Positions 11,546-50,744 of a DNA stretch of 64,000 nucleotides are shown in pieces; within the stretch, counting starts at the first letter, position 1; every line of letters starts with the position of its first letter. The notes beneath the pieces are model-generated. The model saw only the letters and a program-made list of their open reading frames with translations. It was not told the origin of the DNA and ran no database searches. Source of the DNA: an uncultured bacterium (lineage in GTDB: Bacteria; Bacteroidota; Bacteroidia; Bacteroidales; CAIWKO01); the NCBI GenBank assembly GCA_903862465.1, contig CAIOYH010000010.1, forward strand, positions 18,998 through 82,997, given 5' to 3'. The translations under genes and the position numbers were made by a program.

Positions 11546-12286
11546 TTAAAAGTTACAAAGTATTTGAGCAAATACCATGCCTCCGGGAACTCCGAGTTCG
11601 CCATTGTTGCTTTCGTAGCGGGCAGCAAACCAAACAAAAATTTTCTCCTTTCCTGACAAATCAACACCTTCGAAGTTTACAGCTAAGCGTCCTCGGTAGG
11701 CATTGGCATAAAAAGTCAATTCATGGACACTTTTTGGTGGTTGTGTGCCAATATAACGATATACTTTTACAAACTTCATACCTTCAGGCAATCGAAGGCT
11801 AGTGGGCGTATTAGGATTAAATACTATGAGTACCATTTCTCCCAAAAGATTTTTCTGAATAATGACTGTTGGCTGTAAGGCTACCGTAGAATCACTTTTG
11901 CGATGTCCTGACTTCTTAGCAAGAGGAGTGCCTAGTTTAATATTTGCTACAGCCCAATCGCTATATTCGCCGTGAGCTATAATTTTAAATAGCAAACGGT
12001 GGCCACCCACATCATAGCCTGCATATTCGCGCAATGTTTTAATCGTGATTTTTATCGTATTCCTTTGTCCGGTGGTAATGGTTTTTTTATTTGCATAGGG
12101 TTCCAACAAGGGAGCCACAATTTCGCGCATGTTATGCCAAAAAAGACTTTCTTCTTCTGTCCAATGCCAATCTTGCCATTTGAAAGTCCCAATGCCGCCG
12201 GAACCTTCGCTACGTTGTAAATCATCTAATGCCATAATATAAATTATAGCTTCATAAATTTTCTGAGGGATGTTTGTGTTTGCCAT
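11546..12286 (-). CDS. Orphan hypothetical protein with FN3-like C-terminus; paralogue of 29914-30648; preceded by 21-bp array A
   Basis: 246 aa. Shares with 29914-30648 the N-terminal TNIP, a WT(E/N)E(E/D) segment, LPEG, and the C-terminal pattern aromatic-x-W/F...R...G(E/D)..G..(V/I)..QIL. No function recognised. Confidence 0.7.
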   Translation of the reverse strand: MANTNIPQKIYEAIIYIMALDDLQRSEGSGGIGTFKWQDWHWTEEESLFWHNMREIVAPLLEPYANKKTITTGQRNTIKITIKTLREYAGYDVGGHRLLFKIIAHGEYSDWAVANIKLGTPLAKKSGHRKSDSTVALQPTVIIQKNLLGEMVLIVFNPNTPTSLRLPEGMKFVKVYRYIGTQPPKSVHELTFYANAYRGRLAVNFEGVDLSGKEKIFVWFAARYESNNGELGVPGGMVFAQILCNF

Positions 12287-12366
12287 ACTGTTTCGTTTTT
12301 AATTGCTAGTATTCTGAATTTCTATCTGTTGTTATTGTTAATTAAAAAAAGAACCACACTATTTAT

Positions 12367-12625
12367 GTAGAACGTGTTCAACTATTTGTAGAAGGTGTTC
12401 TACGCTTTATAGAACATGTTCAACTTTTTATAGAACATGTTCTACATTATGTAGAGCGAGTTCTATGTTTCGTAGAGCGCGCTCTACTTTTTATAGAGCG
12501 AGTTCTATTTTTCGTAGAGCGTGCTCTACGTTTTATAGAACGTGTTCTACATTTTCTCGAACTAGTTCTACGTTGTGTAGAGCGAGTTCTACGTTTCATA
12601 GAACAGGTTCTATATTTTGCAGAGC
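12367..12625. repeat. Tandem array A: 12 full units plus 1 partial, exact 21-bp period, each unit carrying the dyad TAGARC-NN-GYTCTA
   Basis: Units start at 12367, 12388, 12409, ... 12598 with no indel, e.g. gtagaacgtgttctacgtttt. The array lies 80 bp upstream of the ATG at 12286. Confidence 0.95.
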
Positions 12626-12981
12626 TTACTTTGTGAAATTTAAGACACACTCCACACTTTTATCAATCTTTTCAAAAAACAATAAAATTTGTACTGTATT
12701 ATTTCACCTTAAGTGAGTTTCATTTACAATACGTATATTATTGCTATAATGTTTCTGAAAAAATAAATACACAAAATTATGGAAAAAATAGTTCAGTTGC
12801 GCATTTTTAGTAAAATATTTTTTATTATGCACACTTATTTTGAAATAAATTGTGATACTTGAATATTTGATGTAAGGAAGGAGGATAGAAACTTGAGACG
12901 GAGCGCCAGGGATACAAACAGTAAGTTGCTTTTTTATGATTAATGGATAAGGAAAGACATTCTTATAATGAACGCTGTCAG

Positions 12982-13749
12982 TTATTTTACTACTTCAAAC
13001 TTCCATCCTCTTTTAGCTTTATAATGTCGAGTAGCTGCTAGTTTGATTATTCCTGCGGGTAAAAAACAAATAACTTCAACAAATATAACCGCAACTAAAA
13101 CTAAGGTATAGGTCATATTGTCATACCCATTTACATCGTCGCCGTCCTCATCATATTTTAGTGGGAAAAATCGATTTTTCAAGGATAACAGAATTCCTGT
13201 TACCGCTATGGCTGATACCCCCATTACTAAAACATCACCCCCTCGATGTTTACTAATTTTTCCAATGTCATTTATTGCAATACGCTCAGCGTTTACCATT
13301 ATAAATGAATCCGAAATAGCCTTAATGCGTCCTTTCGCATGGAATGTATCTGAAATAGTTTCTAAATATACTTTTTGACCGAGTTCAAAAGAAACTTTAG
13401 CTGTTTGTTCCTGTCCATTTTTAACTTTTGTTCTTTTAGCTATTAAAACGTTCCTATGTAATAAAGTGTCAGTTTTTCCTTGGTGCGCAATAGAATCAAA
13501 TTGTGCTTTTTGTAATAATAGCGCTTTGCTGTTTTTATCAATTATCCAATTCTTTATCTGCGTTAAAGGCATATATTCATTCCGAATATCTTTTTTAAAT
13601 ACCATAGTATAAAAGATATTTTCACTATTCACTAATGTTATTTCGCAATGTATTGTATCGCCTTTCAACGTAATAATTTTGTCATTATAATTTTGTGCAA
13701 ACAATAATGAAAACTTCATAACAAGCAGAAAAATCAAGACTCTTTTCAT
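12982..13749 (-). CDS. Hypothetical protein with signal peptide and C-terminal TM segments
   Basis: 255 aa. N-terminal MKRVLIFLLVMKFSLLFAQ; two C-terminal hydrophobic helices. No recognised domain. Confidence 0.65.
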   Translation of the reverse strand: MKRVLIFLLVMKFSLLFAQNYNDKIITLKGDTIHCEITLVNSENIFYTMVFKKDIRNEYMPLTQIKNWIIDKNSKALLLQKAQFDSIAHQGKTDTLLHRNVLIAKRTKVKNGQEQTAKVSFELGQKVYLETISDTFHAKGRIKAISDSFIMVNAERIAINDIGKISKHRGGDVLVMGVSAIAVTGILLSLKNRFFPLKYDEDGDDVNGYDNMTYTLVLVAVIFVEVICFLPAGIIKLAATRHYKAKRGWKFEVVK

Positions 13750-13929
13750 AACAAACGATTTAATTTATGATGCTAGATTATAGGATATAGCTTAAATAAT
13801 ACCTTATATTTTTCAAGTTCAATTTGGATATTATCAGAATATACTTTGCTATTTTTGTTTAAAATCAAATTTCTTACCTCTCAAATCAAAAATCAAAAAC
13901 CACTTTAGATTAGACCGTGCCTATATCAC

Positions 13930-14008
13930 CAATGACCACAAATGACTATTAATGACCACAAATGACCATCAATAACAACAAATAACCATCAATGACCACA
14001 AATGACCC
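13930..14008. repeat. Simple-sequence block of ~10-11-nt words (AATGACCACA / AATGACCATC) directly 3' of tsaB
   Basis: caatgaccacaaatgactattaatgaccacaaatgaccatcaataacaacaaataaccatcaatgaccacaaatgaccc. The same word family occurs at 23761-23833 and, inverted, at 38461-38510. Confidence 0.75.
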
Positions 14009-14009
14009 A

Positions 14010-14711
14010 TTACTTCAACCCCTTCACATTCGGTGCTCCAGCAATAAAATCTTTCAAATAAAACGGCTCGAAATACGCTGTATTTTCAAACTCACTTCGA
14101 TTATATCTTTCCAATGCTTTCGGAATCATATATTGTGCTGAAAGAAAAACATCATCAATAAACTGAATCTTTTGAACACCTTCAAATAAAGTCTTGCATT
14201 TTTCGGCACCATCGCCAAAGCAAAGCAGAGAATTCTCTTGAAAATATTCGGAAAAGGATTCGGAAGTAATAATTTCGGCAGCAGTGGGTTTAAGTTCATT
14301 TAAACTTAAGTCGAACAAAGCATAATACACCTCCATTCTTCGAGCATCTATCATGGGGCAGAGCAATGTTTTGGTATCGAAGTCATGGTCGGGATGCAGC
14401 ACGCCTTGTGCCAACGAAAACAAGGTATTCACCGAAAGTAAAGGAATGTTCAGCGCATAACAAATGCCTTTGGCTGTCGAAACGCCTATGCGCAAGCCGG
14501 TGTAAGACCCCGGACCTTTGCTAACCGCCACTGCATCGAGCTGATGGATTTGCAATCCCGCTTCAGTCAAAGCCTCTTGAATAAAAACCGTAATCATTTC
14601 CGCATGCGAATTCTCGCGCTGCGTTTCTCTAAGAGCAAGCAGCCTATCGTTATCCGATAAAGCTACCGAACACGATCTCGTTGCCGTTTCTAAATGAAGA
14701 ATGATTGCCAC
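14010..14711 (-). CDS. tsaB: tRNA t6A37 biosynthesis protein TsaB (YeaZ)
   Basis: 233 aa. N-terminal ILHLETATRSCSVAL and GPGSYTGLRIG, typical of TsaB. Confidence 0.88.
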   Translation of the reverse strand: MAIILHLETATRSCSVALSDNDRLLALRETQRENSHAEMITVFIQEALTEAGLQIHQLDAVAVSKGPGSYTGLRIGVSTAKGICYALNIPLLSVNTLFSLAQGVLHPDHDFDTKTLLCPMIDARRMEVYYALFDLSLNELKPTAAEIITSESFSEYFQENSLLCFGDGAEKCKTLFEGVQKIQFIDDVFLSAQYMIPKALERYNRSEFENTAYFEPFYLKDFIAGAPNVKGLK

Positions 14712-14723
14712 TAAAAAATGTTC

Positions 14724-16088
14724 TTACTTTTTTTCCAAGAAGAGCTCCTTCTTATCCACCTTTTTCACCACCGAATTATCCTTCAGACTTTTGCTGATGG
14801 CATTATACGGTGCTGTAACAATTTCATCGCTTTCGGTGATGCCAGTCTTGATTTGGATATACATATTATCTTGTATGCCGGTTTTGACCTTAACCATTTT
14901 CACTTTGCCGTCATTATACACAAACACATACTCTTGCGCAGCCTTATGCTCTTTCTTAGTGTCGGCTTGCTTTGCCTCATCCGTTTGTGGTTTCTCGTCT
15001 TTCGTTTTGGCAGCCGCTTTGGCAGCCGAATCTTCTCGAACCGTCACAGCTTGTATGGGAACCGAAAGCATATTCACCACCGTTTCGGTTTGCACATCCA
15101 CCGTTGCCGACATGCCCGGACGGAAAGGCGAAGAATTGGGTCGTTTGGCATCCAACAAATCCAAATAGGTTTCGCGCAGGATTCGAATCTTTACATTAAA
15201 ATTCGTCACTTGGTCGGTGGTCAAACCTGTCACATCCGCCGAGTTGGCAATTTCGGTAACGATACCTTTAAACTTCCGATTGAGATACGCATCCACATCA
15301 ATAAGAGCCGTATCGCCAAGCTTCACGCGAACAATATCGTTTTCGTTCACACTCACGTTCACTTCCATTTCATTCAAATCAGCAATACGCATAATTTCCG
15401 TTCCTGCAAATTGCGTAGTACCCACCACACGTTCGCCTTGTTCGATACTCAGCTTGGAGATAGTGCCATCCACAGGCGCAAAGATATTGGTCTTCGAGAG
15501 GTTGGTGGCAGCTTCTTTCACCGTAGCATTCGTGCTTTGCACATTATATTGAGACGCTTTATAGGATTGCTCGGCAGCAGTAACTTCTTCTTTAGCGACT
15601 TCGTATGCAGATTTAGCGGCATCGTATTCCGATTGCGAAATAACCGTTTGCTTCCATAGGCTTTCGTTACGTTCAAAACTCAATTTCGCATTGATATATT
15701 GCGCATTCACTTGCGCCAAACGCGCTTTGGCATTGGCTTCGTTGGCTTTTTGCGAATTCAATGCCGCCTGCATCTGTTCGTAATTCGATTCGTAAATGTC
15801 AGGTTTTATCTTTGCCAACAAATCGCCCTTCTTCACCTTGTCGCCTTCCTTCACCAACAATTCCACCACTTCACCCGACACATCAGGCGAAATCTTAACT
15901 TCCACTTCGGGCTGTATCTTTCCGCTAGCAGAAACCGTCTCGATGATGGTTCGTTTGACTGCTTTTTCTACAGCAACTTCAATAGTTTCTTTTTTGCCGA
16001 TGCATCCTGTTTTTTTGCCAACAGCAAGTAGTATTACTAAAACAATTACGCCTATGATGGAATAACGTATGATTCTTTTCTTTTTCAT
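14724..16088 (-). CDS. Efflux transporter periplasmic adaptor (HlyD/MacA family)
   Basis: 454 aa. N-terminal TM anchor, lipoyl-like GEVVELLVKEGDKVKKGDLL, a long coiled-coil hairpin and beta-barrel C-terminal domains. Confidence 0.88.
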   Translation of the reverse strand: MKKKRIIRYSIIGVIVLVILLAVGKKTGCIGKKETIEVAVEKAVKRTIIETVSASGKIQPEVEVKISPDVSGEVVELLVKEGDKVKKGDLLAKIKPDIYESNYEQMQAALNSQKANEANAKARLAQVNAQYINAKLSFERNESLWKQTVISQSEYDAAKSAYEVAKEEVTAAEQSYKASQYNVQSTNATVKEAATNLSKTNIFAPVDGTISKLSIEQGERVVGTTQFAGTEIMRIADLNEMEVNVSVNENDIVRVKLGDTALIDVDAYLNRKFKGIVTEIANSADVTGLTTDQVTNFNVKIRILRETYLDLLDAKRPNSSPFRPGMSATVDVQTETVVNMLSVPIQAVTVREDSAAKAAAKTKDEKPQTDEAKQADTKKEHKAAQEYVFVYNDGKVKMVKVKTGIQDNMYIQIKTGITESDEIVTAPYNAISKSLKDNSVVKKVDKKELFLEKK

Positions 16089-16109
16089 AAAATATATTTC
16101 TTACAATTA

Positions 16110-20039: not shown

Positions 20040-20046
20040 ATCGCTC

Positions 20047-21875: not shown

Positions 21876-22288
21876 TCACATGAATCTGCCAGGTTTTCAA
21901 AATCTTGCAGATTTCATTGCTCCCCACTTGACTGCCTAGCCATTCGCGCCCTCCTGCACAATCAAATTCATCCTACAAGTCGCGTCCCGACTAAAACTAT
22001 TGTGTTCTAATGTGCCTATTGTGGTAAAATAATCATATCTAATCATAAAAATCAGCGTCATTAGCGTTCCTCCTCAAATCCGTCTCATCCGTGTTCCATT
22101 TCCCCTCCAAAAAAAATGCCTGAACATATCTATTTATATTCCGCCATGTTATAGCCCCTTATTTCAAGGGGTTGGGGTTAAAAAAACAATCCAAAAAAAA
22201 GAGCCTGAACACCCCGTCCAAACTCCTTTTTTACTATTTTCAAATTAAATCTTAATTCAAAAATCTAAAATCTAAAATCTAAAATTTC

Positions 22289-23182
22289 CTAATCCACCAC
22301 TATCTCAAAATTAAAATCATTCGACCTTCCCCTCACAATATGTATATGTGCCAAAACAACCACTTTCCCATTAAACACACCGGTCAACACATCATTCCCG
22401 TTTCTCACCCTTGCCAAAGTAGCCAAACCTTCCCAATTCGTGCTAGCTGTTTTCTCTGCTTTAGTCAATGTAAAAACTACACTTTCCATCGCCTTGCCCG
22501 TACCTTTTTCCGAAACGCAAATATTCACATACGTATGATGCACATTCACCGCAGGAATCTCCATCGCAGTCATTACCCTATCATAAAACGCTTTATTACT
22601 CTTTTTATAGGGCTTCAACAACATCTTCAACTGCTCAATCAATTTCCTAACAGGCTTAAAACTCTCCACAAAAGCTTCCGTCAATGCAGGCGACTCCTCA
22701 TGTTTCGCATCGCTCGTACCCTTCACCACGCCAAACGCATCAATCTCATCCTGCAAATCCTCAAGCATTTCCTCCGTAACATCATCTCCCAAATCTTCCA
22801 CATTTTCCAACATAATATCATGCGCACTTTGCGCCAAAGCTTGGCAAGCCACATCCGCCAACGAACTATAATCCGTTTCATTCACATGCAATGTATCCGC
22901 TATATCTGTCTTACCCAAATCAGTCAAAGCCACATGTGACAAACCCGCATAAGTAGAAACAGTGTAGCTCAATTCAAGCTTTTTCTCTTGTTTCAATTCG
23001 CTATAACCGCTATTATCAGGAAATGCTGCGGCTGCCGCCTGCCTATTCGCCAAAGTTGCCGCCTTATATTGTCCAAACTTTGCATTTAATTTCACATTAT
23101 TTGTATAACAATCACTATCTAGTCCCATTTGGGTCTCCGTAGCCTGATTACGGGTCATTTCAATTTGTTCAATATTATTCAT
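22289..23182 (-). CDS. Orphan hypothetical protein (acidic helical N-terminal region, Ig/CarboxypepD_reg-like beta C-terminus), preceded by 21-bp array B
   Basis: Start chosen at MNNIEQIEM; the ORF-track start at 23215 is also possible. The C-terminus VNICVSEKGTGKAMESVVFTL...GKVVVLAHIHIVRGRSNDFNFEI looks like a beta-sandwich. Confidence 0.7.
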   Translation of the reverse strand: MNNIEQIEMTRNQATETQMGLDSDCYTNNVKLNAKFGQYKAATLANRQAAAAAFPDNSGYSELKQEKKLELSYTVSTYAGLSHVALTDLGKTDIADTLHVNETDYSSLADVACQALAQSAHDIMLENVEDLGDDVTEEMLEDLQDEIDAFGVVKGTSDAKHEESPALTEAFVESFKPVRKLIEQLKMLLKPYKKSNKAFYDRVMTAMEIPAVNVHHTYVNICVSEKGTGKAMESVVFTLTKAEKTASTNWEGLATLARVRNGNDVLTGVFNGKVVVLAHIHIVRGRSNDFNFEIVVD

Positions 23183-23348
23183 AACTCGTCTTTTTTTGTT
23201 AATGATTTTTGGCAAAAATAATACTTTTTTTGATTCCTACGAATAATTATAGAAAATATTTTTATCACTATTTAATATTCTGTCCCACTGTTATATATAA
23301 CATATAATAAATTTGTTTTCGTCAAAACGAGTCAATTAATTAATCGAA

Positions 23349-23600
23349 TTAATGTTCATTTTTCCCCTGTTGATGTCCGTTTTTTTCCACGTGATGTGCA
23401 TTGATTCTCTATTGATGTTCATTTTTTCTCCGTTGATACTGATAAGTTCCACGTTGATGATGGTTAGTTCCCTGTTGATGCTCATTAGTTCTACGTTGAT
23501 GTTCATTTTTTGCCCAATGATGTTCATTAGTTCTCTATTGATGTCCATTTTTTGCCTGTTGATGTTCGTTTTTTGCCTGTTGATGTCCATTTTTTGTCTG
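23349..23600. repeat. Tandem array B: 12 units, exact 21-bp period, consensus TTGATGTYCATTTTTTGCCTG
   Basis: Units start at 23349, 23370, 23391, ... 23580 with no indel. The array lies 134-167 bp upstream of the start of 22289-23182/23215. Confidence 0.95.
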
Positions 23601-23833
23601 TCGAACTATGTTTGAAATCTTTCAAAATTCACTTAAAAACGTCTATATTTCACATATTCACCGATTTACAACAATATTGTCAGGTTTAACATCTTATTGT
23701 ATCATTACCCATTCAATTTCCACAATTATCCCCATCAAATAACCAAATCAATTGAAATATTTAGCCAATCAACCAATTTGCCCAATGACCAAAAATGACC
23801 ATTAATGACAATAAATGATCTAGAATTAACCAA

Positions 23834-29061: not shown

Positions 29062-29262
29062 TACGAATTACGAATGAACAAATTACGAATAGGGGTAAAG
29101 CAGGCTGCTATTGTCAGGTATATTAACCACTTCGAATTACGAATAGGCGAATTACGAATGCCACACCCCTTGGTATTTGGAGCTTAGAATTTGGTTCTTG
29201 GGTCTTGGAATTTGGGTCTTCTCCCTTGGTATTTGGAGCTTGGAGCTTGGAATTTGGATCTT
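29062..29262. repeat. Simple-sequence word block: AATTACGAAT x4, then CCTTGGTATTTGGAGCTT x2 with TTGG-rich filler
   Basis: aattacgaat occurs at about 29066, 29081, 29135 and 29150. ccttggtatttggagctt occurs at 29168 and 29224. The block lies between the mscL stop and the Gly-rich protein start. Confidence 0.7.
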
Positions 29263-29913: not shown

Positions 29914-30648
29914 TTAGCTTATCGGCAAAATTTGCCGAATGCTCCAATCCCCTGCCAGTTCAGGATGTTGGAGATTAATCCAACGTCCCCATAAGTAAAG
30001 CTCAAAGCCGGCAAAGTCTTCCGTCAACTCTATACGGAAACGTGTAGAAGTGACGATGGAAGTGGTAGTCCCATCATTCGGACCACTACATTTTTCTTTT
30101 ACCAAGCCTTTGTATTCTTCAGGAATATCAAATTTGCCTTTTACGACAGCATGGCGCAATTCCAAAGCGTTTGCACCTTCAGGAAGCGCGTGGCTTTTGG
30201 TTTCGTTGTCTATACGGGCTATTCCCTTGAACACACCATTAGGATGCGGAGTGGCAATCACCACACAATCATCACCAATTTTAGTTGTTGGATGTGTTAT
30301 CACCTTTGTCAAGCCGGTCTTCCTATTGAAAGCGGCTCTATCCTCATTCGTCCATTTCTCTGCAGGAATATTATTGACAATGAGAATAAGCAGCGACTTA
30401 ATATCGCTTGTTACGTTACGCAGATTTGCTGATATTACGGCGGGTTTTCTGCCTGTAGCTTCATCATATTTCTTTTTACAATAGAGATAGGTGCCTACGG
30501 TTGTATCATCACCATATAAAGCTTGAAGAAGGCTTACACGGGTGGATAATATACCGAGTCGCGTAGCGTTTAAAACGATATAGGCTACTATTACGAATAA
30601 AAAGACCTGCCACCCGGGTATGTTTGTTGGAAAAGTTTTCTTTGTCAT
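29914..30648 (-). CDS. Orphan hypothetical protein (N-terminal TM helix, FN3-like C-terminus); paralogue of 11546-12286; preceded by 21-bp array C
   Basis: 244 aa. TNIPGWQVFLFVIVAYIVL anchor, WTNEDRAAF, ALPEG, and C-terminus FELYLWGRWINLQHPELAGDWSIRQILPI. Confidence 0.7.
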   Translation of the reverse strand: MTKKTFPTNIPGWQVFLFVIVAYIVLNATRLGILSTRVSLLQALYGDDTTVGTYLYCKKKYDEATGRKPAVISANLRNVTSDIKSLLILIVNNIPAEKWTNEDRAAFNRKTGLTKVITHPTTKIGDDCVVIATPHPNGVFKGIARIDNETKSHALPEGANALELRHAVVKGKFDIPEEYKGLVKEKCSGPNDGTTTSIVTSTRFRIELTEDFAGFELYLWGRWINLQHPELAGDWSIRQILPIS

Positions 30649-30849
30649 TTCTTATAAATTTAAAATGGTTTGTAGTATTATTGAATTTACATAAGCTCGT
30701 AAGCTTAGGTTGTAATCTATACTTGGGGATTTCTATCCGATGTTGGACTGCGGATAAAATGAGATAGATATAAACTAAGGTAGTTCTGTATCAATATAGT
30801 ATATATCGTATAGCGTAGGAATTGCATTGCATAAAGCTGAAATTGGGTT

Positions 30850-31164
30850 GAAACTAGCAAGAATTTGACCGGAACTAGCCTGACTGAAACTGGAACTAGA
30901 TTGACTGAAACCGGAACTAGCCTGACTGAAGATGGAACTAGCCTGACTGAAACCGGAACTAGCCTGACTAAAACCGGAACTAGCCTGACTGAAACCGGAA
31001 CTAGTGTGACTGAAGATGGAACTAGCTTGACTGAAACCGGAACTAGCCTGACTGAAACTGGAACTAGCCTGACTGAAACTGGAGCTAGCCTGACTAAAAC
31101 TGGAGCTAGCCTGACTAAAGCTAGAGCTAGCTTGACTTGAGCTGAAGCACAGCTAGCTTGTTCA
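30850..31164. repeat. Tandem array C: 13 clear units plus 2 degenerate edge units, exact 21-bp period, consensus GGAACTAGCCTGACTGAAACC
   Basis: Units start at 30871, 30892, ... 31123 with no indel. The array lies about 200 bp upstream of the ATG at 30648. Confidence 0.95.
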
Positions 31165-31891
31165 GAAGCAAGGCTGATGAAAGATAACACAAGAATACAG
31201 AAACTGAAAATCCACCCCTTCAATCCAAACAAAGAAATACTGTGAGCCGATTTAGCTCCGAAAAAACCCTTACACGACAAAAGCCTTCCCCTAAATTTAA
31301 TTTCCAACCCAAGCTTACTCATACTTGAACACGAATTAAGTTTTACAAAGATACTACAAATCATCGAGTAAGCAAGCTTTATTTTACTTATTTTCACTTC
31401 ACAAAATAGAAGCATTGATATTTAAGAAGATATAAACGCCTAAAATATGAATAAAAATAGGTTTATATCGATATACGAAGATTTAATTATAACTTCAGGT
31501 GCATTTATACAAGCTAAAGGTGATGTAATGAAGACTAAATTTGGATTTAGGTACTGAAATACCGAATTAAGGTATATAAAAGATAGAATTACACACTTTA
31601 TTGACGATTTATTTGTCTTAATGCTTATATATATACCATCATGTCCTTACAATAGCTTTAATGCATTTCATAGAAAGTAAACTCAGGGGCTAAAGCCCTA
31701 CAGTGGGGGTGATAGTTGCCCTCCTAGCCTAAAGGCTAGAGTTACTAAAAGTCTCTTTATCTAAGTAATATATATATTGAATAGCCCTAGCCTTCAGGCT
31801 AGGGATTAATGAGCCACAAGAATCTAGGGACTTTAGTCCCGAATTGCACTTCTAACTGTTTCAATACATTTAAAGAAAAGAAACCAACAAC

Positions 31892-36495: not shown

Positions 36496-36618
36496 TGAGT
36501 AGGTAGATTAATAAATTCGTTGTTAATTGGTAATGGGTATAGGGTAAAAGGTAATTGGTATGTGCTTAATCATTTATAAATCAAAATTCATAAATCTTAA
36601 ATCAAAAATAAAAAGACT

Positions 36619-38460: not shown

Positions 38461-38510
38461 CAATTAGTGGTCATTAAGTGGTCATTAAATTGTCATTTAT
38501 GGTCAATACT
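38461..38510. repeat. GTGGTCATTAA word block (inverted orientation relative to 13930 and 23761)
   Basis: caattagtggtcattaagtggtcattaaattgtcatttatggtcaat. Confidence 0.7.
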
Positions 38511-38521
38511 ATGCTCCTAGA

Positions 38522-38673
38522 CCCAAACACCAAGATCCAAGATCCAAGAAGGAAACCACGGAGACACGGAGACCACTAAGGATCACAAAGAAGACCAAAG
38601 CCCAAACACCATATTCCAAGAGCCAAGAAGAAACCACAAAGACACTAAGACACAAAGGTGCACAAAGAAGACC
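38522..38673. repeat. Tandem duplication of a ~79-nt purine/C-rich unit (CCCAAACACCA..CCAAGA..ACCAC..CACAAAGAAGACC)
   Basis: Copy 1 is 38522-38596 and copy 2 is 38601-38673. Both start cccaaacacca and end cacaaagaagacc. Confidence 0.75.
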
Positions 38674-39104: not shown

Positions 39105-39330
39105 AAAATAATCACATACGATGTTCAAGTAATTAAGTAGCCTTATAAAATTATTGAATGACGTCAGAAAATAATTGAATGAGATGTAAGCATAAAAAAT
39201 GACGTGTTAAGACAAATAAATACGAAGCAAAAATAATTAAATGATGCTAGAAAATAATTAAGTAGGATGTAAAAATAATGCACTACGATGTAGAACATAA
39301 AAATAGGATGTAAAAATTACTAACTGCTCG
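39105..39330. repeat. Tandem array E: about 11 degenerate AT-rich units, 20-21-bp period (AAAATAATTRAATGAnnTGnn)
   Basis: Examples are aaaattattgaatgacgtcag, aaaataattgaatgagatgta, aaataattaaatgatgctag, aaaataattaagtaggatgt and aaaaataatgcactacgatgt. Weaker periodicity extends to about 39020 and about 39445. Confidence 0.65.
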
Positions 39331-39469
39331 TATTTGAAAGGGAAGACGTGTCAGAAGACAATTATATACGATGTCTTAATAACTGACTACAATGACTTAC
39401 TCTTTAACTCCTATCATTTAATAAGGAAGTCATCGCAGTCAAAAACCGGATAGCAGTAGTGAGTTGTTT

Positions 39470-39616
39470 GATGGCGATGGTTAATCCTTAGATGGCAGGA
39501 GTTAGCTTCTTGATGGCTGTAGTTAACTTCTTGATGGCAGTAGTTACCTTCTTGATGAGATAAGATTGTTGCTTGATGATAGGAGAAGATTATTGGATGG
39601 GGGGATTTTATTTTGG
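39470..39616. repeat. Tandem array F: 7 units, exact 21-bp period, consensus GATGGCAGTAGTTAACTTCTT
   Basis: Units start at 39470, 39491, 39512, 39533, 39554, 39575 and 39596. The array ends 144 bp upstream of the ATG at 39760. Confidence 0.9.
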
Positions 39617-39759
39617 GAGAGGGATAAAGTGAAAGATGAAAAAAAATGTATTTTTTGTTTTTATTTGGGAAATGTTATGTACTTTTGAAGTCTGAAATAG
39701 AAAATCAATTAAAAAAGGGATTACCAATCATTCCTAGCAGAACCTTTAATGTCATTACG

Positions 39760-40950
39760 ATGAAAAAATATATTCTCCTGATAGCTTTATTGTGTGTTAG
39801 TAGTTTATTATCAGCCCAACCCTATAGGCTGAAAGATACAATAGTGGTTTTTAAGCTTAAGTTTGAAACCTCAAACGGGATGATACTAAAATATGTACCG
39901 TATAAAATCCCAAGAAAGCTTAGATGGACTGACAAACAAAACGTGATGCACAGAGGGGTACTCCGAAAAATCAATGTAAGCTATCTGCTGCTTGATACAA
40001 CCCGGGTGTATCCTTCCGATATAAGTGCTCTTGTAATGACGCATTTTCCTGATTCCTGTCATTATACGTACCGAAAAACCAAGCCGGTCATATACGATAG
40101 TAACGGCAGGTTTACCATTATGAGTTATTACGACTTTCGAAATCTCATGAAAACCATATCGTTTTCCAACACACAACACCTTCCGAATCCTTTTTTCAAA
40201 AACATTTCCACCGAAAAATATGTTGCCGATTTGGAAAGGAAAAGACTGCGCAGGATTGAACATTTTGCTGCCCTCGACACCTGCCCCTTGCGCTATGGTT
40301 TAAAAACCAATCTAGTGAGAGACCTCCTCAATGAAATCAATCTGAGTATTGAAATTCCATTAAAACGAAACTTCTGTATTGATGTGGGAGTCGGTATTTT
40401 ATACTCAAGACCTTATACCGAATCCGCAAGCTATGATATGGCTTTTGCCCAATTCAGTTTCTTGAAATCTTCCAATCAATCTTGGTTCGATCATTCTTAT
40501 TATAACCGCAAAGGATTCGGCATAGAAGTTATCCCCAAGTTCTTTATTTCTAAAAAGAAGAATCTGTATATCGGTCCGCAACTTTGCTTTCGCTACTATA
40601 ACTATCATAACAAATGGATTTTTATAAATGATGAACCCGGCGATTATTATTACAGGGCAAATTATGCGTATCAAAGTGAAAAAAGTACAGCCGTTCATCT
40701 TAATATTATGTTTGGTGTGCAAACGCCACCTATAAAAAGATTTTTGTTTGATGCTTTTATCTCCTTTGGATTTATGTATCGGGGTGGAACTGTCAGCAGG
40801 TCAATTGAAAAAACCACAGGTATTAACTATGGTACATACCTTGTAAATTATGATCCACCTCAAGCATTCAAAGGGGGCGGTTTTTCATTATCAGGACAAA
40901 TAGGTTTAAGATTGGGTTTGCGATTTGGGAAGACAAAACTATACAAATGA
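39760..40950 (+). CDS. Hypothetical secreted protein, C-terminal half beta-barrel-like (possible outer membrane protein)
   Basis: Start moved to MKKYILLIALLCVSSLLSAQ (signal peptide). The C-terminus has alternating aromatic/Gly-rich strands and ends ...GLRLGLRFGKTKLYK. Confidence 0.65.
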   Translation: MKKYILLIALLCVSSLLSAQPYRLKDTIVVFKLKFETSNGMILKYVPYKIPRKLRWTDKQNVMHRGVLRKINVSYLLLDTTRVYPSDISALVMTHFPDSCHYTYRKTKPVIYDSNGRFTIMSYYDFRNLMKTISFSNTQHLPNPFFKNISTEKYVADLERKRLRRIEHFAALDTCPLRYGLKTNLVRDLLNEINLSIEIPLKRNFCIDVGVGILYSRPYTESASYDMAFAQFSFLKSSNQSWFDHSYYNRKGFGIEVIPKFFISKKKNLYIGPQLCFRYYNYHNKWIFINDEPGDYYYRANYAYQSEKSTAVHLNIMFGVQTPPIKRFLFDAFISFGFMYRGGTVSRSIEKTTGINYGTYLVNYDPPQAFKGGGFSLSGQIGLRLGLRFGKTKLYK

Positions 40951-45683: not shown

Positions 45684-45719
45684 AGGAGTTTTTTTTGCAA
45701 AGGTACTAAAAAGCGACGA

Positions 45720-46877: not shown

Positions 46878-46895
46878 AAATAAAATACGACTAAA

Positions 46896-47246
46896 TTACA
46901 GCTCAATTTGAACACTCACTTTTTCGAGTTTCCCGCCAAGGGGTGGATTCATTTTCGACACCTTTACACTCAAATGTGTGATTTCAGGAAAACTTTTCTT
47001 CACCGCAATGCCGATCCGCGAAGCGACATGTTCCAACAGTTTGGAGGTAATCGCCATTTCATATTTCACTATGGTATATATTGCCTGATAATTAACCGTG
47101 GTGGAGAGCACGTCAGTAGCTTCAGCTTCAGTAGTGTCGGCGTCGGCAACAACATCCACCAAAAAACGATTGCCAATGATTTGCTCTTCGGCAAAACAAC
47201 CGTGATATGAATAGAATTCCATGTTCTCCAAAAATATTTTCCCCAT
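46896..47246 (-). CDS. folB: Dihydroneopterin aldolase
   Basis: 116 aa. FYSYHGCFAEEQIIGNRFLVDV and VNYQAIY are typical of FolB. Confidence 0.88.
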   Translation of the reverse strand: MGKIFLENMEFYSYHGCFAEEQIIGNRFLVDVVADADTTEAEATDVLSTTVNYQAIYTIVKYEMAITSKLLEHVASRIGIAVKKSFPEITHLSVKVSKMNPPLGGKLEKVSVQIEL

Positions 47247-47361
47247 AAATCATAATTTAAAAAACACAAAAGTACGAATAAAAGCGTTTGAACTTAAGAT
47301 TTCTGCTGCAATACTTTTCGAAATTGTGTGCTTCATATCGTTTAAAACCATTCAAAAATCG

Positions 47362-47369
47362 TATCTTTG
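47362..47369 (+). promoter_or_regulatory. Candidate -7 box TATCTTTG upstream of glnS
   Basis: Matches TAnnTTTG, 24 nt upstream of the ATG at 47393. Confidence 0.4.
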
Positions 47370-47392
47370 CAGCCGTTTAAGAAAACTGAATT

Positions 47393-49096
47393 ATGGAAGA
47401 TTCCAACAAAACAAACAATACAGAGCAAACATCAGGCGAAAGCAAATCGCTGAATTTTATCGAACTAATTATCGAAGAAGACATTCGTACGGAGAAATAC
47501 GGCAAACGGGTACACACGCGTTTCCCTCCCGAACCGAATGGATATTTGCATATTGGTCATGCAAAATCTATTTGTTTGAATTTCGGATTGGCAAAAAAAT
47601 ATGGCGGCAAATGCAATTTGCGTTTCGACGACACCAACCCAACCAAAGAGGATACGGAATATGTGGATTCCATCAAAGAAGATGTGAAATGGCTCGGGTT
47701 CAATTGGGATGGAGAATATTATGCCTCCGATTATTTCGAGACATTGTATGAATATGCGGTTACGTTGATAAAAAAAGGCAAAGCTTATGTATGCGATTTG
47801 ACGCAAGAAGAAATTGCTGCTACGCGGGGAACTGTAACAACGGCAGGCTCTGTAAGTCCGTATGCACAACGAAGTGTGGACGAGAATTTGGATTTGTTTG
47901 TCCGCATGAGAGCCGGTGAATTTGTGGATGGGACTAAAGTGTTACGTGCTCGTATTGATATGGCTTCGCCCAATATGCTGATGCGCGACCCAATCTTGTA
48001 TCGTATTTTGCATGCTGAACATCATCGCACAGGCAATGCTTGGTGCATTTATCCGATGTATGATTTTGCCCATGGACAGTGCGATTCTATTGAACAAATA
48101 ACCCACTCTATCTGCACGCTTGAATTTGAAGTACACCGCCCCTTGTACGAATGGTTTATAAAGGAGTTGGAGATTTATGCGCCACAACAAATAGAATTTG
48201 CGCGACTCAATATCAATTATACGGTGATGAGCAAACGCAAATTGCTTTCCTTGGTTCAAGAAAATGTGGTGAACGGTTGGGACGATCCGCGTATGCCTAC
48301 CATTTGTGGCTTGCGTCGTAGAGGTTATACGCCTGAATCATTACAGAATTTTGCCGAAATCATCAGTGTGGCGAAACGCGACAATGTGATAGATGTGTCG
48401 CTTTTGGAGCATTGCTTGCGTGAAGATTTGAATAAAAAGGCGCAGCGTATCATGGCAGTGTTGCAGCCAATTAAACTCATATTGACGAATTATCCTGAAG
48501 ATAAAGAAGAATTGTTGGACGCGGTGAATAATCCCGAAGACGCTACAACAGGAACCCGCAAAGTACCATTCTCAAGAGAATTGTATATTGACCAAGACGA
48601 TTTCATGGAAATTCCGCAACATAAGTTTTTCCGCTTGTCGCCCGGCAACGAAGTTCGTTTGAAAAGTGCTTATATCATTCGTTGTGTGGATGTGATAAAA
48701 AACACCGACGGCAGCATCAAAGAATTGCATTGCACCTACGATGAAAACACCAAAACGGGCATGCCCGAAAGCAATCGTAAAGTGAAAGGAACCATACATT
48801 GGGTGTCTGCAAAACATGCTGTGGCGTTCGAAGCCCGTTTGTACGACAAATTGTTTCTCCCCGAAAATCCGGAAGTGGTTGCCGAAGGCGAAGATTTTAG
48901 GTCGAATCTCAATCCCGATTCCTTGAAAGTAATTACGGCGTATGCCGAACCTTTTATCAAAAACATGGCAGTGGGGGCTATCGTTCAGTTTGAGCGCACG
49001 GGCTATTTCTGTGTGGATACTGACAGCACTCCCAAGCAATTGGTAATGAACAAAACAGTAGGCTTAAAAGGCTCGTGGCAGAAAACAGGGAAATAA
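47393..49096 (+). CDS. glnS: Glutamine--tRNA ligase
   Basis: 567 aa. [16 protein letters not shown] (HIGH) and VMSKRKL (KMSKS) motifs, with a GlnRS-type C-terminal anticodon-binding region. Confidence 0.96.
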
Positions 49097-49134
49097 ATAA
49101 TTGAGAAATATGTTTTTTATTTCCGAAAGTTTCA

Positions 49135-49142
49135 TAATTTTG
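49135..49142 (+). promoter_or_regulatory. Candidate -7 box TAATTTTG for tRNA-Gln
   Basis: Matches TAnnTTTG and ends 10 nt before tRNA position 1. Confidence 0.4.
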
Positions 49143-49151
49143 CAACCTCAT

Positions 49152-49224
49152 TGTTCCGTGGTGTAACTGGCAACACGTCTGACTCTGAATCAGAAGAGTC
49201 CAGGTTCGACCCCTGGCGGAACAA
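49152..49224 (+). tRNA. tRNA-Gln (anticodon CTG)
   Basis: TGTTCCG-TG-GTGT-AACTGGCA-ACAC-G-TCTGA-CT CTG AA-TCAGA-AGAGT-CCAGG-TTCGACC-CCTGG-CGGAACA-A. All four stems pair. There is no encoded CCA. Confidence 0.9.
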
Positions 49225-49235
49225 CTTCACATATG

Positions 49236-49275
49236 AAAGGTTTTATGCTCAATGGAGTGTAAAACCTTTTTTATT
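49236..49275 (+). terminator. Terminator hairpin after tRNA-Gln
   Basis: AAAGGTTTTAtgctcaatggagtgTAAAACCTTTtttatt: a 10-bp stem plus a T-rich tail. Confidence 0.65.
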
Positions 49276-49630
49276 GATACAAAAGCCTATTTTGTTTGAC
49301 TTTATAAATGGCAGTTACCATCATTTTTTTATTTTTAGATGCATATCCTTTTCTTAAAACGAGTATCCTTGTTTTGTCTTATCTTTGTTTAGGGTTTTAT
49401 GATGCTTTATTCTTTGAAGATAATATCATTAGAATATTAAAAGATGGCATTCAAATAGTGAATGACCTTACAAAAGCATGAAATGCCGCGATAATATTAT
49501 TGATTGACGTGATATCTCTTTTTGCTCCATGCATCTCTGTGTAACAAGAAAAACAACGAACCATAAGTCAACTCGTAATTATCACACAGTTAACGTATTT
49601 AAAATTGTCGCACCAAATAAACGCCAAATA

Positions 49631-49903
49631 GTATTGTATAGTGCGCAAAGAGTATTGTAGAGAGCGATGATGTTGTAGTAGAGAGCGATGATGTTGTTGT
49701 AGAGAACGAAGATGTTGTAGTAGAGAGCGGTGATGTAGTTGTAGAGAACAATGATGTTGTTGTATAGTACGCAAAGAGTATTGTAGAGAACGATGATGTT
49801 GTTGTATAGTACGCAAACAGTATTGTAGAGAGCGATGATGTTGTAGTAGAGAACGACAAACTTGTAGTAGAGAACGACAAAGTTATTGTAGAGTTCGTAA
49901 AGA
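49631..49903. repeat. Tandem array D: 13 units, exact 21-bp period, two interspersed unit subtypes
   Basis: Units start at 49631, 49652, ... 49883 with no indel. The subtypes are TTGTATAGTRCGCAAAGAG-like (units 1, 7, 9) and TTGTAGAGARCGATGATG-like. The array lies 185 bp downstream of the stop of 50088-50744. Confidence 0.95.
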
Positions 49904-50087
49904 TTTCTGATACTAAATCGGCAAAATCATGCTTTTTTCAGCTTCTATTTCATGATTAGAACAACATAAATATGCTATTATTTTAACAAACCAAAGAAGC
50001 TTTCATAAAAAAAGGACACCATAAAAATTTCTATGATGTCCATATATATAAATGCTGATTTCTTAATTTTAGCTGCTCGAAGCGTGT

Positions 50088-50744
50088 TTAATTTGTGAGT
50101 GTAAAACCGATCCTATTGGATGGTTCAGAAATTCCTGCTGAATTTTGTATGGCAACTGCATAAAATTGCTCTACCAATACGGTAACATTTTTAGCAAGCA
50201 ATTTAAACGAACTTGTACAGGTGATAGTTTCTTTTGGCGATGGGGAATCAACGGCGGCATAAACGTAAAGAAGGTACATCTTCGAACCTCTTTTCAATTT
50301 AGCTTCGCCTGTTCCTTTCACCAAATTAACTTTCACCGTTTTAGCATCCGTTCCCCGCACCACTTTTTGTATAACCGGCTTTGCAAAAACCGTCTGCTTT
50401 GCTTTATCACGACTAGGAATAGCTCCTGACTTCTCAATCATCACCTTATCGCCGCCACAAACAGGCACCAAATACGGAATAATTTCGTCAGTCATCATAT
50501 CAAACAATGCTCCATTTTCTGCATTGCGAATGCTTCTTTCATGCGGACCGCCTGTTATGGCGTTGTCTGTGGCAGTTATAGAAAGATCATATTGCGCCTT
50601 AAAATCCGCTTTTATTGGTTTTGGTCCCACAAAAATTAGTGGAAATTCATACATATTCTGTAGAAACAAACCGGCTTGATTGTTCACTCCGTTGTAATCT
50701 GTTCTTGTTACTCCGCCTAATGTAGGCTTATACTTTGTTGCCAT
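50088..50744 (-). CDS. Orphan hypothetical protein with FN3-like C-terminus, followed by 21-bp array D
   Basis: 218 aa. The C-terminus KVNLVKGTGEAKL..MYLLYVYAAV...FYAVAIQNSAGISEPSNRIGFTL shows a canonical FN3 F-G strand pattern. Confidence 0.7.
   Translation of the reverse strand: MATKYKPTLGGVTRTDYNGVNNQAGLFLQNMYEFPLIFVGPKPIKADFKAQYDLSITATDNAITGGPHERSIRNAENGALFDMMTDEIIPYLVPVCGGDKVMIEKSGAIPSRDKAKQTVFAKPVIQKVVRGTDAKTVKVNLVKGTGEAKLKRGSKMYLLYVYAAVDSPSPKETITCTSSFKLLAKNVTVLVEQFYAVAIQNSAGISEPSNRIGFTLTN

Follow-up and report, generated by a model that had tools for sequence, protein, structure and literature searches.

Private 21-bp tandem arrays and genes of one helical/FN3-like superfamily form an apparently undescribed two-part module in several uncultivated bacterial lineages

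Short sites repeated at regular intervals are known from both RNA and DNA. In the trp leader bound by TRAP and in CsrB/RsmZ, about 10–20 regular short RNA motifs each bind a single subunit of an oligomer, and the TRAP repeats lie in a 5′ leader. Those motifs are 3–5 nt long, variably spaced and served by one conserved global protein, whereas the arrays described here consist of private 21-nt units beside the gene of the presumed partner. In DNA, the sites of iterons and centromeres (F sopC, R1 parC) and of 21-bp operator pairs of the LytTR/AraC/ArgR type are phased by whole helical turns and lie beside, and are specific for, their cognate binding protein. The LytTR, AraC and GerE families have site spacings of ~21 bp or 7-2-7 palindromes. 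In contrast to iterons and centromeres, the arrays here lie among chromosomal housekeeping genes and have no Rep or Par genes; unlike operator pairs, they have three regulator families or none adjacent, far higher copy numbers, strand-asymmetric folding and a promoter upstream of the array. ToxN-type enzymes cut RNA at A-rich cleavage sites. The repeats of type III toxin-antitoxin (TA) loci (toxIN, cptIN and tenpIN) are 31–62 nt long and present in 1.9–5.6 copies (PMC3401426), and the period of 21 nt and the 10–16 copies found here, the former invariant across the family, fall outside all three of these families. BrickBuilt, a minisatellite/MITE of Porphyromonas gingivalis, has a 23-nt unit with one consensus at 19 loci, 1–22.8 copies with indels, leader/tail segments with terminal inverted repeats, and bidirectional promoter activity (PMC4596501).

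Arrays A–D and F and region E were delimited in the window, the whole 64,000-nucleotide stretch analysed here, by Tandem Repeats Finder (TRF) and by laying out the sequence in 21-nt blocks (Table 1). The block layout bore out the exact 21-bp register described in the earlier note for arrays A, B, C and D and for ~8 units of F; the indels that TRF reports in array D arise because its two unit subtypes alternate. The distances to the neighbouring genes agreed as well, with arrays A, B, C and F lying 81, 136/169, 202 and 144 bp upstream and array D 185 bp downstream. Region E was not strictly periodic in the block layout, and TRF recovered it at 39217–39300 as two rows of ~3 copies with 8–17% indels; it is probably a decayed array. 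In gene sense, the unit of array A has the 7-2-7 palindrome GTAGAAC-nn-GTTCTAC with an A-rich linker behind it, while array B has the conserved core ATGRACATCAAC, with no hairpin potential. The units of array C are highly homogeneous (GGAACTAGCCTGACTGAAACT on the + strand).

Table 1. Positions of arrays, genes and predicted signals in the window.
Feature	Position	Strand	Description
P_A	11546..12286	-	246 aa; N-terminal helical domain and C-terminal FN3-like sandwich; superfamily member
Array A	12367..12625	-	12 full 21-bp units and a partial one; TRF 12362-12623, 12.5 copies, 0% indels
Predicted -7 box, array A	12772..12779	-	TAATTTTG; 154 nt upstream of array A
P_B	22289..23182	-	297 aa, acidic orphan; no detectable relation to the P_A/P_C superfamily
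Canonical -7 box, P_B	23213..23220	-	TATTTTTG; between array B and start codon
Array B	23351..23602	-	~12 units; TRF 23352-23601, 11.9 copies, 0% indels
P_C	29914..30648	-	244 aa; superfamily and architecture as P_A
Array C	30850..31143	-	~13-14 units; TRF 30871-31137, 12.7 copies, 87% matches, 0% indels
Predicted -7 box, array C	31346..31353	-	TATCTTTG; 210 nt upstream of array C
Region E	39105..39330	+	A-rich, degenerate repeats; period roughly 21 bp; indels present
Array F	39451..39618	+	~5-8 decaying units, TGGCAGTAGTTAACTTCTTGA; TRF 39449-39557, 5.2 copies, 8% indels
Array D	49631..49903	-	13 units, two alternating subtypes; TRF 49625-49893, 10-11.4 copies
P_D intrinsic terminator	50007..50041	-	GGACAYCAT...ATGGTGTCC then T7; kept in L021, L022 and L023
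P_D	50088..50744	-	218 aa, basic orphan; no detectable homology to the superfamily
Stand-alone LytTR-domain gene	50839..51278	-	Split or degenerate, upstream of P_D; intact (141 aa) in L021

Long self-similar stretches occurred in a lag scan of the window at lags 21, 42 and 63 only, besides one heptamer run, and 20 locally shuffled windows scanned at lags 4 to 69 gave none. Across 184 kb (the window plus related loci), 18 long arrays were found at lag 21 and at most four at any other non-multiple lag, which confirms that 21 is a special period and that other periods are not equally frequent. None of the 24 arrays examined departed from a period of exactly 21 bp, across unit sequences, architectures and neighbouring gene families. 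The units are private, as had been proposed: the consensuses of different arrays were unrelated on comparison, and the cores of arrays A and B did not recur elsewhere in the window beyond chance. Different paralogues likewise had different units in four sources (two MAGs and two metagenome samples; sets L001/L003, L004/L005, L010/L012/L013 and L025–27), and no leader, tail or inverted repeats common to different loci were found. The orthologous array at L001 has the same consensus and copy number (12.5) as array A, L006 differs from L001 by one unit, and array B and L016 show concerted evolution with a conserved 12-bp core. The suggestion that the arrays are copy-number contingency switches is therefore unlikely, because they lie outside coding sequence and promoter spacers and their copy number is stable.

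Since 21 nt equals seven codons, the arrays might encode heptad repeats, and open frames do run over B (84 aa), C (232 aa) and L026 (70 aa), the frame of array B being open in L016 too, with similar residues. However, L004 and L005 are closed in all three sense frames, conserved unit positions form contiguous blocks rather than every third base, and the open frames lie mostly on the T-rich strand, whichever strand that is. An assembly artefact is excluded because independent assemblies have arrays of diverged units at corresponding, orthologous sites. Taken together, coding repeats or artefacts are a very improbable explanation.

P_A and P_C belong to one uncharacterised superfamily, as judged from sequence profiles and predicted structures. 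The two had been called visibly paralogous; direct BLASTP and hhalign comparison did not support this, but an intermediate subfamily (hhalign between subfamilies A1–A4, 99.4%; A2–A4, 97.4%) and an identical predicted architecture did. AlphaFold2 and Foldseek upheld the predicted beta-sandwich, which is FN3-like, in both proteins. An HMM search returned 113 superfamily clusters at 50% identity, with no matches to Pfam, NCBIfam, PHROG or PADLOC families; P_A itself matched nothing in Pfam, PHROG, PADLOC, NCBIfam or PDB sequences. No RNA-binding or nuclease fold was recognised, the structure matches being to FN3 only, and no catalytic-looking residues were conserved across the superfamily. P_A, P_C and P_D are predicted to be basic (pI 9.0–9.4). 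The dN/dS of P_A against L001 was 0.32; between genomes at dS ~0.4, the module keeps its synteny and shows purifying selection, and searches of phage, plasmid and viral collections did not recover it.

Each of the 18 superfamily loci for which 230 bp or more of upstream sequence was available had a 21-bp array of a private unit (window A and C; L001, L003–L008, L010–L013; L018/L019, L020; L025–L027). The last three represent a distant subfamily of 220-aa proteins, from a MAG with Shine-Dalgarno sites. The layout is 10–16 tandem 21-nt units followed, 35–220 nt on, by the superfamily gene (220–246 aa), and ~120 kb of DNA flanking these loci held no further 21-bp arrays. Thus, the proposed modular coupling of private arrays to a paralogous gene family holds and extends to a second lineage, but not to all array-attached genes, since P_B and P_D have no detectable relation to the superfamily and the neighbour of array F is DUF3575-like. 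The array and the helical/FN3-like gene form a conserved two-part module in several uncultivated bacterial lineages, apparently undescribed so far. This coupling bears on whether the arrays are simply fast-evolving minisatellites without a specific partner, generated by slippage or unequal crossing-over and with incidental promoter or terminator effects. Turnover is evident in B versus L016, in the full replacement of D in L021 and in the one-unit difference between L001 and L006; arrays also lie beside the unrelated genes at B, D and F; and region E and array F resemble decaying arrays. BrickBuilt is a precedent for spacer-less arrays of ~23 nt in Bacteroidota (PMC4596501), with which the arrays share an intergenic position, a unit of ~20 nt that is half conserved and half variable, and possibly an effect on the transcription of neighbours. 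However, BrickBuilt is tied to no gene family and has a single consensus at its 19 loci, whereas the arrays here have a different unit at each locus, an exact period, a narrow copy number and no common leader or tail, and are tightly tied to one superfamily. A link at 18 of 18 loci from distant lineages, at each of which the array precedes the superfamily gene and has a fixed position relative to the promoter box, would be unexpected if it were incidental, and we regard this explanation as unlikely.

To place the arrays relative to promoters, we used the Bacteroidetes −7 consensus. In 8 of 13 modules, a sense-strand TAnnTTTG box precedes the array by 118–210 nt (binomial P ~1e-6), and in the superfamily modules no such box was found between array and ATG except in L012, where a canonical promoter follows the array. 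Most of the predicted module promoters lack a −33 element. L001 has a box identical to that of array A at an identical distance, and the predicted box implies a P_A leader of ~480 nt containing array A. In L026 and L027, only ~30–55 nt separate the array from the start codon and the Shine-Dalgarno site follows closely on the array, so that a promoter would hardly fit between array and gene. Because a box lies upstream of the array in most of these modules and, except in L012, none lies between array and start, the array of a superfamily gene is probably part of a long 5′ leader; we infer transcription through it from these consensus boxes. The arrays fall into at least two predicted positional classes, one inside a long 5′ leader (A and C) and one upstream of a canonical promoter (B and F), while D lies behind a terminator.

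As single strands, the arrays of the P_A family folded far better than dinucleotide shuffles (z −4 to −14), and the units were often predicted to form small hairpins. The gene-sense strand was the more stable in 10 of 14 independent arrays because of G-U pairs (−77 versus −52 kcal/mol in L008 and −75 versus −26 kcal/mol in L026), whereas the antisense strand folded better in window A/L001, L010 and L012. This asymmetry counts against a DNA dyad, which would show none. Runs of at least four A dominate over T runs in the sense strand of the hairpin arrays, suggesting that hairpin-plus-U terminators are avoided in the sense transcript, and stem and loop sizes vary widely among close homologues, with 2 to 15 nt separating the half-sites, unlike in a fixed dimeric operator. 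We tentatively propose that the array is a transcribed repeat leader acting with the encoded protein as a multivalent, locus-specific binding platform. A promoter would be followed by a leader of ~120–210 nt, the array and the gene; the array would be transcribed within the long 5′ leader; its units, usually a short hairpin or RNA-palindrome with a linker, would bind the encoded protein; and the protein could thereby regulate its own gene or assemble into a ribonucleoprotein. Private units would prevent cross-talk between the paralogous modules of one genome. The basic charge of P_A, P_C and P_D speaks for this reading, and the failure to recognise an RNA-binding or nuclease fold speaks against it. 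Of the roles suggested earlier, a template for a repetitive RNA fits arrays A and C best.

A transcribed array could also belong to a new type III TA or abortive-infection family, in which the protein is a toxin and the array RNA is cut into neutralising 21-nt units. The order of promoter, spacer-less tandem repeats and single protein gene matches the definition of such loci (PMC3401426), each locus has private repeats, a genome can have several paralogues, and the A-rich linkers resemble ToxN-type cleavage sites. Occasional type III loci, including one reported toxIN locus, have their repeats downstream of the toxin gene, like array D (PMC3401426), and in window A/L001 and L010 the array is separated from the gene by a weak hairpin with T7. 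However, besides the deviating unit length and copy number, the protein has no similarity to ToxN, CptN or TenpN and no PADLOC match; it has a helical plus FN3 fold without catalytic-looking residues conserved across the superfamily, rather than that of a ToxN-type endoribonuclease. Most loci lack a terminator in the interval from array to gene, and the module is stably chromosomal, syntenic, under purifying selection and absent from the searched mobile-element collections. These results collectively make a TA system improbable.

The main rival of the transcribed-leader reading is a phased platform at the DNA level, in which duplex sites two helical turns apart would hold 10–15 copies of a DNA-binding protein on one face of the helix. 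Candidates for this protein are the LytTR, AraC and GerE regulators encoded next to arrays and the product of the coupled gene. Once assembled, the complex would switch on, silence or insulate the promoter beside it, and private units would be co-evolving operator-regulator pairs. The period is 21 bp in all 24 arrays regardless of unit, architecture or neighbour family, and since unit architecture varies and genes outside the superfamily (B, D and F) have arrays too, a DNA ruler of two helical turns is simpler than a fit between RNA and protein. Regulator genes adjoin about half of the loci (LytTR at L004 and the P_D loci, AraC at L007/L010, GerE at L005/L020), which points to DNA-level control, and the 7-2-7 palindromes in the units of A and L005, the canonical promoters that directly follow arrays B, F and L012 and the concerted evolution of array B around its core would all suit such a platform. 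Against it, 10–16 tandem operators far exceed the usage of known regulators, and the regulators beside the arrays come from different families and are missing at about half of the loci, the FN3-type gene being the sole constant partner. The distance between half-sites varies among close homologues (0–15 bp), the G-U folding asymmetry and A-run orientation bias are unexpected for duplex sites, and the −7 box lies upstream, not downstream, of the array in most superfamily modules. Unusual curvature was predicted for 10 of 22 arrays and absent in the other 12, so that it lends the platform partial support and sequence-independent curvature is not a universal role. The match to the spacing of LytTR sites, pointed out earlier, is of interest but not general: L004 and the P_D loci have stand-alone LytTR genes as neighbours, other loci have AraC or GerE regulators, and about half have no regulator. 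Overall, we consider a DNA platform possible and only slightly less likely than the transcribed leader; the cooperative binding platform suggested earlier stays a live rival and best fits arrays B and F.

Arrays B, D and F may represent the same type of element working as DNA, or else a separate, parallel phenomenon. The P_B promoter is kept in L016 as TTTG-19-TAAATTTG, and dN/dS of P_B against L016 was 0.25. The C-terminus of P_D (dN/dS 0.19) carries an FN3-like Y-x-V-x-I-x-N-x-x-G-x-S-x-P-S motif, but sequence comparison did not reveal the C-terminus that P_D and P_B had been thought to share. Array D lies downstream of P_D, behind the P_D terminator and a conserved leader of ~90 bp, and P_D proteins that are 88–90% identical adjoin completely different units in the window and L021, which argues against sequence-specific recognition by P_D. 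The gene at 39760 beside array F, previously taken for an orphan, encodes a DUF3575-like outer-membrane-type protein; array F lies upstream of its promoter, which has the −7 box TACTTTTG (39680–39687) and a −33 TTTG.

The strict 21-nt register that had been noticed by eye in tandem arrays A, B, C, D and F was upheld for arrays A, B, C and D and for approximately eight units of array F when the sequence was printed in 21-base blocks; array E proved only roughly periodic. In a lag scan of the window, long self-similar stretches were found only at lags of 21, 42 and 63, together with one heptamer run, and no long self-similar stretch appeared in 20 locally shuffled copies of the window. When the related loci fetched from other assemblies and metagenomes were included (184.5 kb with the window), 18 arrays were found at lag 21, and no other lag, multiples of 21 aside, gave more than 4; thus, the period of 21 is indeed special, and the arrays lie far beyond chance. 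Across loci, the arrays comprised 10-16 units of 21 nt, sometimes 42 nt. Units of separate arrays were unrelated to one another, as had been claimed, and the cores of units A and B had no second occurrence in the window, where no trans sites for these units were found.

Locations of arrays, neighbouring genes and other features (window positions unless a locus is named; TRF, Tandem Repeats Finder)
Feature	Location	Strand	Details
Array A	12362-12623		TRF: period 21, 12.5 copies, 0% indels
Array B	23352-23601		TRF: period 21, 11.9 copies, 0% indels
Array C	30871-31137		TRF: period 21, 12.7 copies, 0% indels
Array D	49625-49893		TRF: period 21
Array E	39217-39300		TRF: two short rows rich in indels
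Array F	39449-39557		TRF: period 21, 5.2 copies
P_A	11546-12286	minus	orphan gene beside array A
P_B	22289-23182	minus	orphan gene beside array B
P_C	29914-30648	minus	orphan gene beside array C
P_D	50088-50744	minus	orphan gene beside array D
P_A family loci with array	L001, L003, L004, L005, L006, L007, L008, L010, L011, L012, L013
P_C family loci with array	L018/L019, L020
Distant 220-aa subfamily loci with array	L025, L026, L027		three paralogues in MAG CSMAG_2279
Stand-alone LytTR gene	L004
LytTR gene upstream of P_D	L021 3604-4029		intact, 141 aa, Pfam E 4e-15
LytTR gene, window copy	50839-51278	minus	split into two ORFs, degenerate motif
AraC-type regulator genes	L007, L010
GerE-type regulator genes	L005, L020
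tRNA-Gln	49152-49225		directly after glnS, ~400 bp from array D
Mrr-type restriction endonuclease gene	52558-53244		1.8 kb beyond P_D
P_D paralogue lacking an array	L023 ~770-2173
-7 box TATGTTTG	23607-23614	opposite to P_B	perfect; abuts distal end of array B
Region with -7 box and palindrome TTTGAAAnnnTTTCAAA	23603-23700		both abut distal end of array B
Counterpart of box and palindrome	L016 ~5500-5620
17-bp tandem repeat GTGTGGGAGAGAGACCT and ~60-nt element	L025 3696-3856; L026 ~2790-2900		ahead of 21-bp arrays
Array-crossing ORFs	30717-31415	minus
	23336-23590	minus
	12465-12716	plus
	L005 9555-9962
	L010 4561-4932
Heptamer repeat	29177-29262		4.1 copies of 21 bp
7-11-bp tandem runs	13927-14007, 23784-23818, 38463-38657, 36524-36614, 22247-22285
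Repeat within HlyD-family gene	15591-15634; L001 3022-3064		2 copies of 21 bp

The window chromosome is of Bacteroidota type, with T9SS sorting domains and with housekeeping genes around the modules. P_A, P_B and P_D, whose dN/dS values against relatives were 0.32, 0.25 and 0.19 (dS 0.3-0.45), are real genes. None of P_A, P_B, P_C and P_D matched Pfam, PHROGs, PADLOC, NCBIfam or the PDB sequences. The earlier note had called their products beta-sandwich proteins, which held for P_A and P_C: the AlphaFold2 model of P_A consists of a helical N-terminal domain (residues 8-119) and a C-terminal seven-stranded sandwich (140-241) that Foldseek matched to many FN3 domains (probability 1.0, target-normalised TM-score up to 0.66), and the P_C model has the same architecture and strand pattern (pLDDT 75-92 over residues 129-242). 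Against the PDB and BFVD, Foldseek returned only generic FN3 matches and none for the helical domain, and the Pfam fn3 profile was unmatched by P_A and P_C despite their FN3-like predicted fold. Both are of a moderately basic type (pI ~9). The paralogy of P_A and P_C, said to be visible, was not recovered by direct comparison (BLASTP, hhalign), but the two families are linked via A4, a 220-aa subfamily contained among the 113 clusters (50% identity) that were recovered when the P_A family was used for an exhaustive HMM search; A4 matched the P_A family over the C-terminal domain (99.4% probability, E 8e-22) and the P_C family over the full length (97.4%, E 1e-11). For finding loci, the broad alignments A3 and A4 proved too divergent. 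For P_B and P_D, the common C-terminus proposed before was not supported by sequence; P_D does end in an FN3-like motif. No relation of either to the others was detected, including homology to P_A by BLASTP or hhalign. No member of the superfamily clusters bears a functional name, all being unnamed metagenomic proteins, and one homologue carries the name of a Bacteroidota MAG.

A periodic array (21 bp, in some cases 42 bp) with its own unit was found upstream of the gene in 18/18 superfamily loci, counted among members for which 230 bp or more ahead of the gene was available, which four divergent members lacked because none of their upstream DNA could be retrieved, and ~120 kb of flanks in the superfamily loci contained no further array of this type. 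The coupling of private arrays to one gene family thus extends to a distant subfamily, and the array-to-gene distances reported earlier were reproduced. The syntenic orthologue of P_A (L001, 79% identity) has the same array consensus as A and likewise 12.5 copies, and the L006 array differs from it by exactly one unit (11.5), while the unit of L003, a paralogue in the same MAG as L001, is unrelated. One of two alternating sub-units is common to the close paralogues L004 and L005, so the module as a whole seems, from the units compared, to duplicate and then diverge. An 88-89% identical P_D homologue in L021 is followed by a unit completely different from that of the window; the window's D unit is present downstream of the P_D protein in L022, and no array lies there in L023.

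These observations bear on partner-less minisatellites of the BrickBuilt kind. BrickBuilt MITEs have one consensus, with a leader and tail ending in inverted repeats, at many loci, whereas the unit here differs per locus, and they vary widely in copy number and contain indels, unlike the arrays of 10-16 units described here (PMC4596501). All-against-all BLAST of array flanks found no leader or tail common between families, which rules out a MITE with such common ends. Because minisatellites would also leave the 18/18 association and the invariant period unaccounted for, we regard them as an improbable explanation. Iterons and partition centromeres adjoin a Rep or ParB/ParR/ParG-type gene on a replicon or mobile element, whereas the neighbours of these modules are housekeeping genes (aldolase, MscL, iPGM, GlnRS), and plasmid, phage and viral collections yielded no homologues.

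Several features near individual modules were also recorded. The P_D paralogue of L023 keeps the terminator and leader, and its sequence diverges at the expected array start with no array after; sequence may have been inserted or deleted at this point, or two contigs joined. The P_D region of the window, which contains a tRNA-Gln gene and an Mrr-type endonuclease gene, could be a small island integrated beside the tRNA. On the contig of P0005, the P_A homologue adjoins genes for a PolB-type exonuclease, DnaB helicase, DHFR and thymidylate synthase, a neighbourhood that by its gene content is phage-like or mobile-element-like, unlike the housekeeping contexts elsewhere.

With respect to promoters, a Bacteroidetes -7 box (TAnnTTTG) in gene orientation preceded the array by 118-210 nt in 8/13 P_A-/P_C-type modules (binomial P ~1e-6 at the frequency with which the box occurs in the window), and only L012 had one between array and start codon. 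A sigma-70 promoter and terminator scan was uninformative, the genome being of Bacteroidota type. The array of L004 ends 34 nt before the ATG, and those of L026 and L027 stop ~30-55 nt short of the start codon, immediately ahead of the Shine-Dalgarno; ribosome-binding sites in their MAG, CSMAG_2279, read AAGGAGG. Given the upstream box and the short gap to the start, the P_A-/P_C-type arrays are most simply part of a long predicted 5' leader. The order is reversed for array B (and its orthologue L016), array F and the array of L012, where a canonical TTTG-N19-TAnnTTTG promoter is located downstream of the array. Array D follows a strong P_D terminator and a conserved ~90-bp leader, with no gene after it. 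At the distal end of array B, the perfect -7 box, the adjacent palindrome and ~90 nt beyond are kept in L016; this element could promote divergent transcription or encode a small RNA. In CSMAG_2279, the arrays are preceded, besides the 17-bp repeat, by a conserved ~60-nt element (duplicated in L026) that contains a TATAAAT box as well as a hairpin (AAGGTTTGGAAACCTT) and may serve an array transcript as promoter or leader.

As single strands, the P_A-family arrays were strongly self-complementary (z -4 to -14 versus dinucleotide shuffles), whereas arrays B and D were not (z 0 to -2.6). Dyad geometry varied among close homologues (7-2-7 in A and L005, 6-0-6 in L003, 6-7-6 in L013), and the L004 dyad has 10-bp arms whose orientation alternates every 21 bp. 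The gene-sense strand folded much better than its complement in 10/14 independent arrays (for example L008, L011, L013, L005, L007 and L025-L027) because many pairs are G-U; in A/L001, L010 and L012 the antisense strand folded better instead. Among arrays with runs of at least four, A-runs dominated the sense strand in 9 and T-runs in 3, and A-runs on the sense strand of hairpin arrays would keep hairpin-plus-U terminators out of the sense transcript. None of the three sense frames is open across the L004 and L005 arrays, and the positions conserved within units lie in contiguous blocks; thus, the arrays are not coding, and a heptad-coding reading is ruled out. An assembly artefact is excluded by the recurrence of the arrays in independent assemblies, and coding repeats or an artefact together have hardly any probability. 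ORFs of 67-232 aa that cross arrays, some of them called as genes by public gene callers, are most likely spurious products of repeats. By a wedge model that is only indicative, 10/22 arrays were unusually curved and 12/22 were not, so curvature alone is not the selected property and sequence-independent curvature is no universal explanation.

The mechanism that we infer from sequence for the A/C-type module is that the array would be transcribed as a repeat leader, whose private hairpin-plus-linker units would offer multivalent binding to the moderately basic protein that the gene encodes, with specificity private to each paralogue. This is our best guess, and a tentative one. Type III toxin-antitoxin systems likewise have repeats directly upstream of one gene and a promoter ahead of the repeats, matching the position of the array in all 18 loci and of the predicted -7 box in 8/13. 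A bona fide type III system, which we consider quite unlikely, has only this architecture in common with the module: its units measure 31-62 nt in ~2-6 copies, outside which the present arrays fall (PMC3401426). In type III systems, a palindromic terminator separates the repeats, rarely found downstream, from the toxin gene. Here, a weak hairpin with T7 lies between array and gene in A/L001 and L010, and none was seen in L003, L004, L005, L008 or L011. The fold also differs, type III toxins, which their repeat RNA neutralises, being ToxN/CptN/TenpN endoribonucleases and the present proteins helical plus FN3-like in their models.

Alternatively, the array could act as a platform of duplex DNA whose sites are phased every two helical turns. 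This main rival, to which we give slightly less weight than to the repeat leader, is the simplest account of a period of exactly 21 whatever the unit or adjoining gene, and arrays B, F and L012 agree with it. Regulator genes adjoin approximately half of the modules (Pfam confirmed), and LytTR, AraC and GerE families have site spacings of ~21 bp or 7-2-7 palindromes, which keeps a DNA-level reading alive. No one regulator family follows the arrays. LytTR-regulated promoters are preceded by pairs of 9-bp direct repeats with a 12-bp spacer. Their 21-bp spacing is found here; LytTR genes adjoin only the L004 and P_D loci, many units form palindromes instead of direct 9-mers, and the predicted promoter is upstream of most arrays. 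The window copy of the LytTR gene, directly upstream of P_D, is probably a pseudogene.

Rfam 15 returned only two tRNAs above the gathering score in the window and nothing in 15 related loci, and literature searches for bacterial 21-bp or 21-nt arrays found nothing relevant; as far as these and the family and mobile-element searches show, the module is undescribed. More speculatively, and with the chances against it, the transcribed-leader reading could define a novel class of cognate repeat-RNA/protein modules, in which a private 21-nt-periodic leader would be read by the downstream helical-plus-FN3 oligomer to give a self-recognising RNP. Such a class would be widespread in uncultivated Bacteroidota and related lineages, its RNP could be an autoregulatory switch, a toxin-antitoxin-like defence element or an RNA-scaffolded assembly, and it would be the protein lattice that fixes the 21-nt ruler. 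A functional coupling would represent a new compact nucleic-acid/protein recognition system, with dozens of natural, mutually orthogonal unit/protein pairs from which programmable RNA or DNA tags might be drawn, a case study of specificity co-evolution after duplication, and a first handle on a superfamily of at least 113 clusters without annotation; it would also account for conspicuous intergenic arrays in which gene callers now predict spurious ORFs. If it acts at the DNA level, a row of 10-16 sites in helical phase would be uncommon among bacterial promoter architectures.

Other repeats in the window were distinguished from the long arrays. Many intergenic regions contain short tandem runs of 7-11-bp units (CACAAATGAC x8, AATGACCATA, ATTAGTGGTC, CCAAGAT, CACGGAGA, CACAAAGA and AAATCAA), which are a separate, abundant microsatellite-like class in this genome. 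Between the gene for a T9SS-secreted glycine-rich protein and mscL, a fourth-order 21-bp periodicity arises from the 7-bp sub-units TTGGAGC/TTGGAAT/TTGGATC; this is a heptamer repeat and not one of the long arrays. Finally, the repeat within the HlyD-family gene, kept in the orthologous L001, is a duplication of coding sequence and has no relation to the intergenic arrays.
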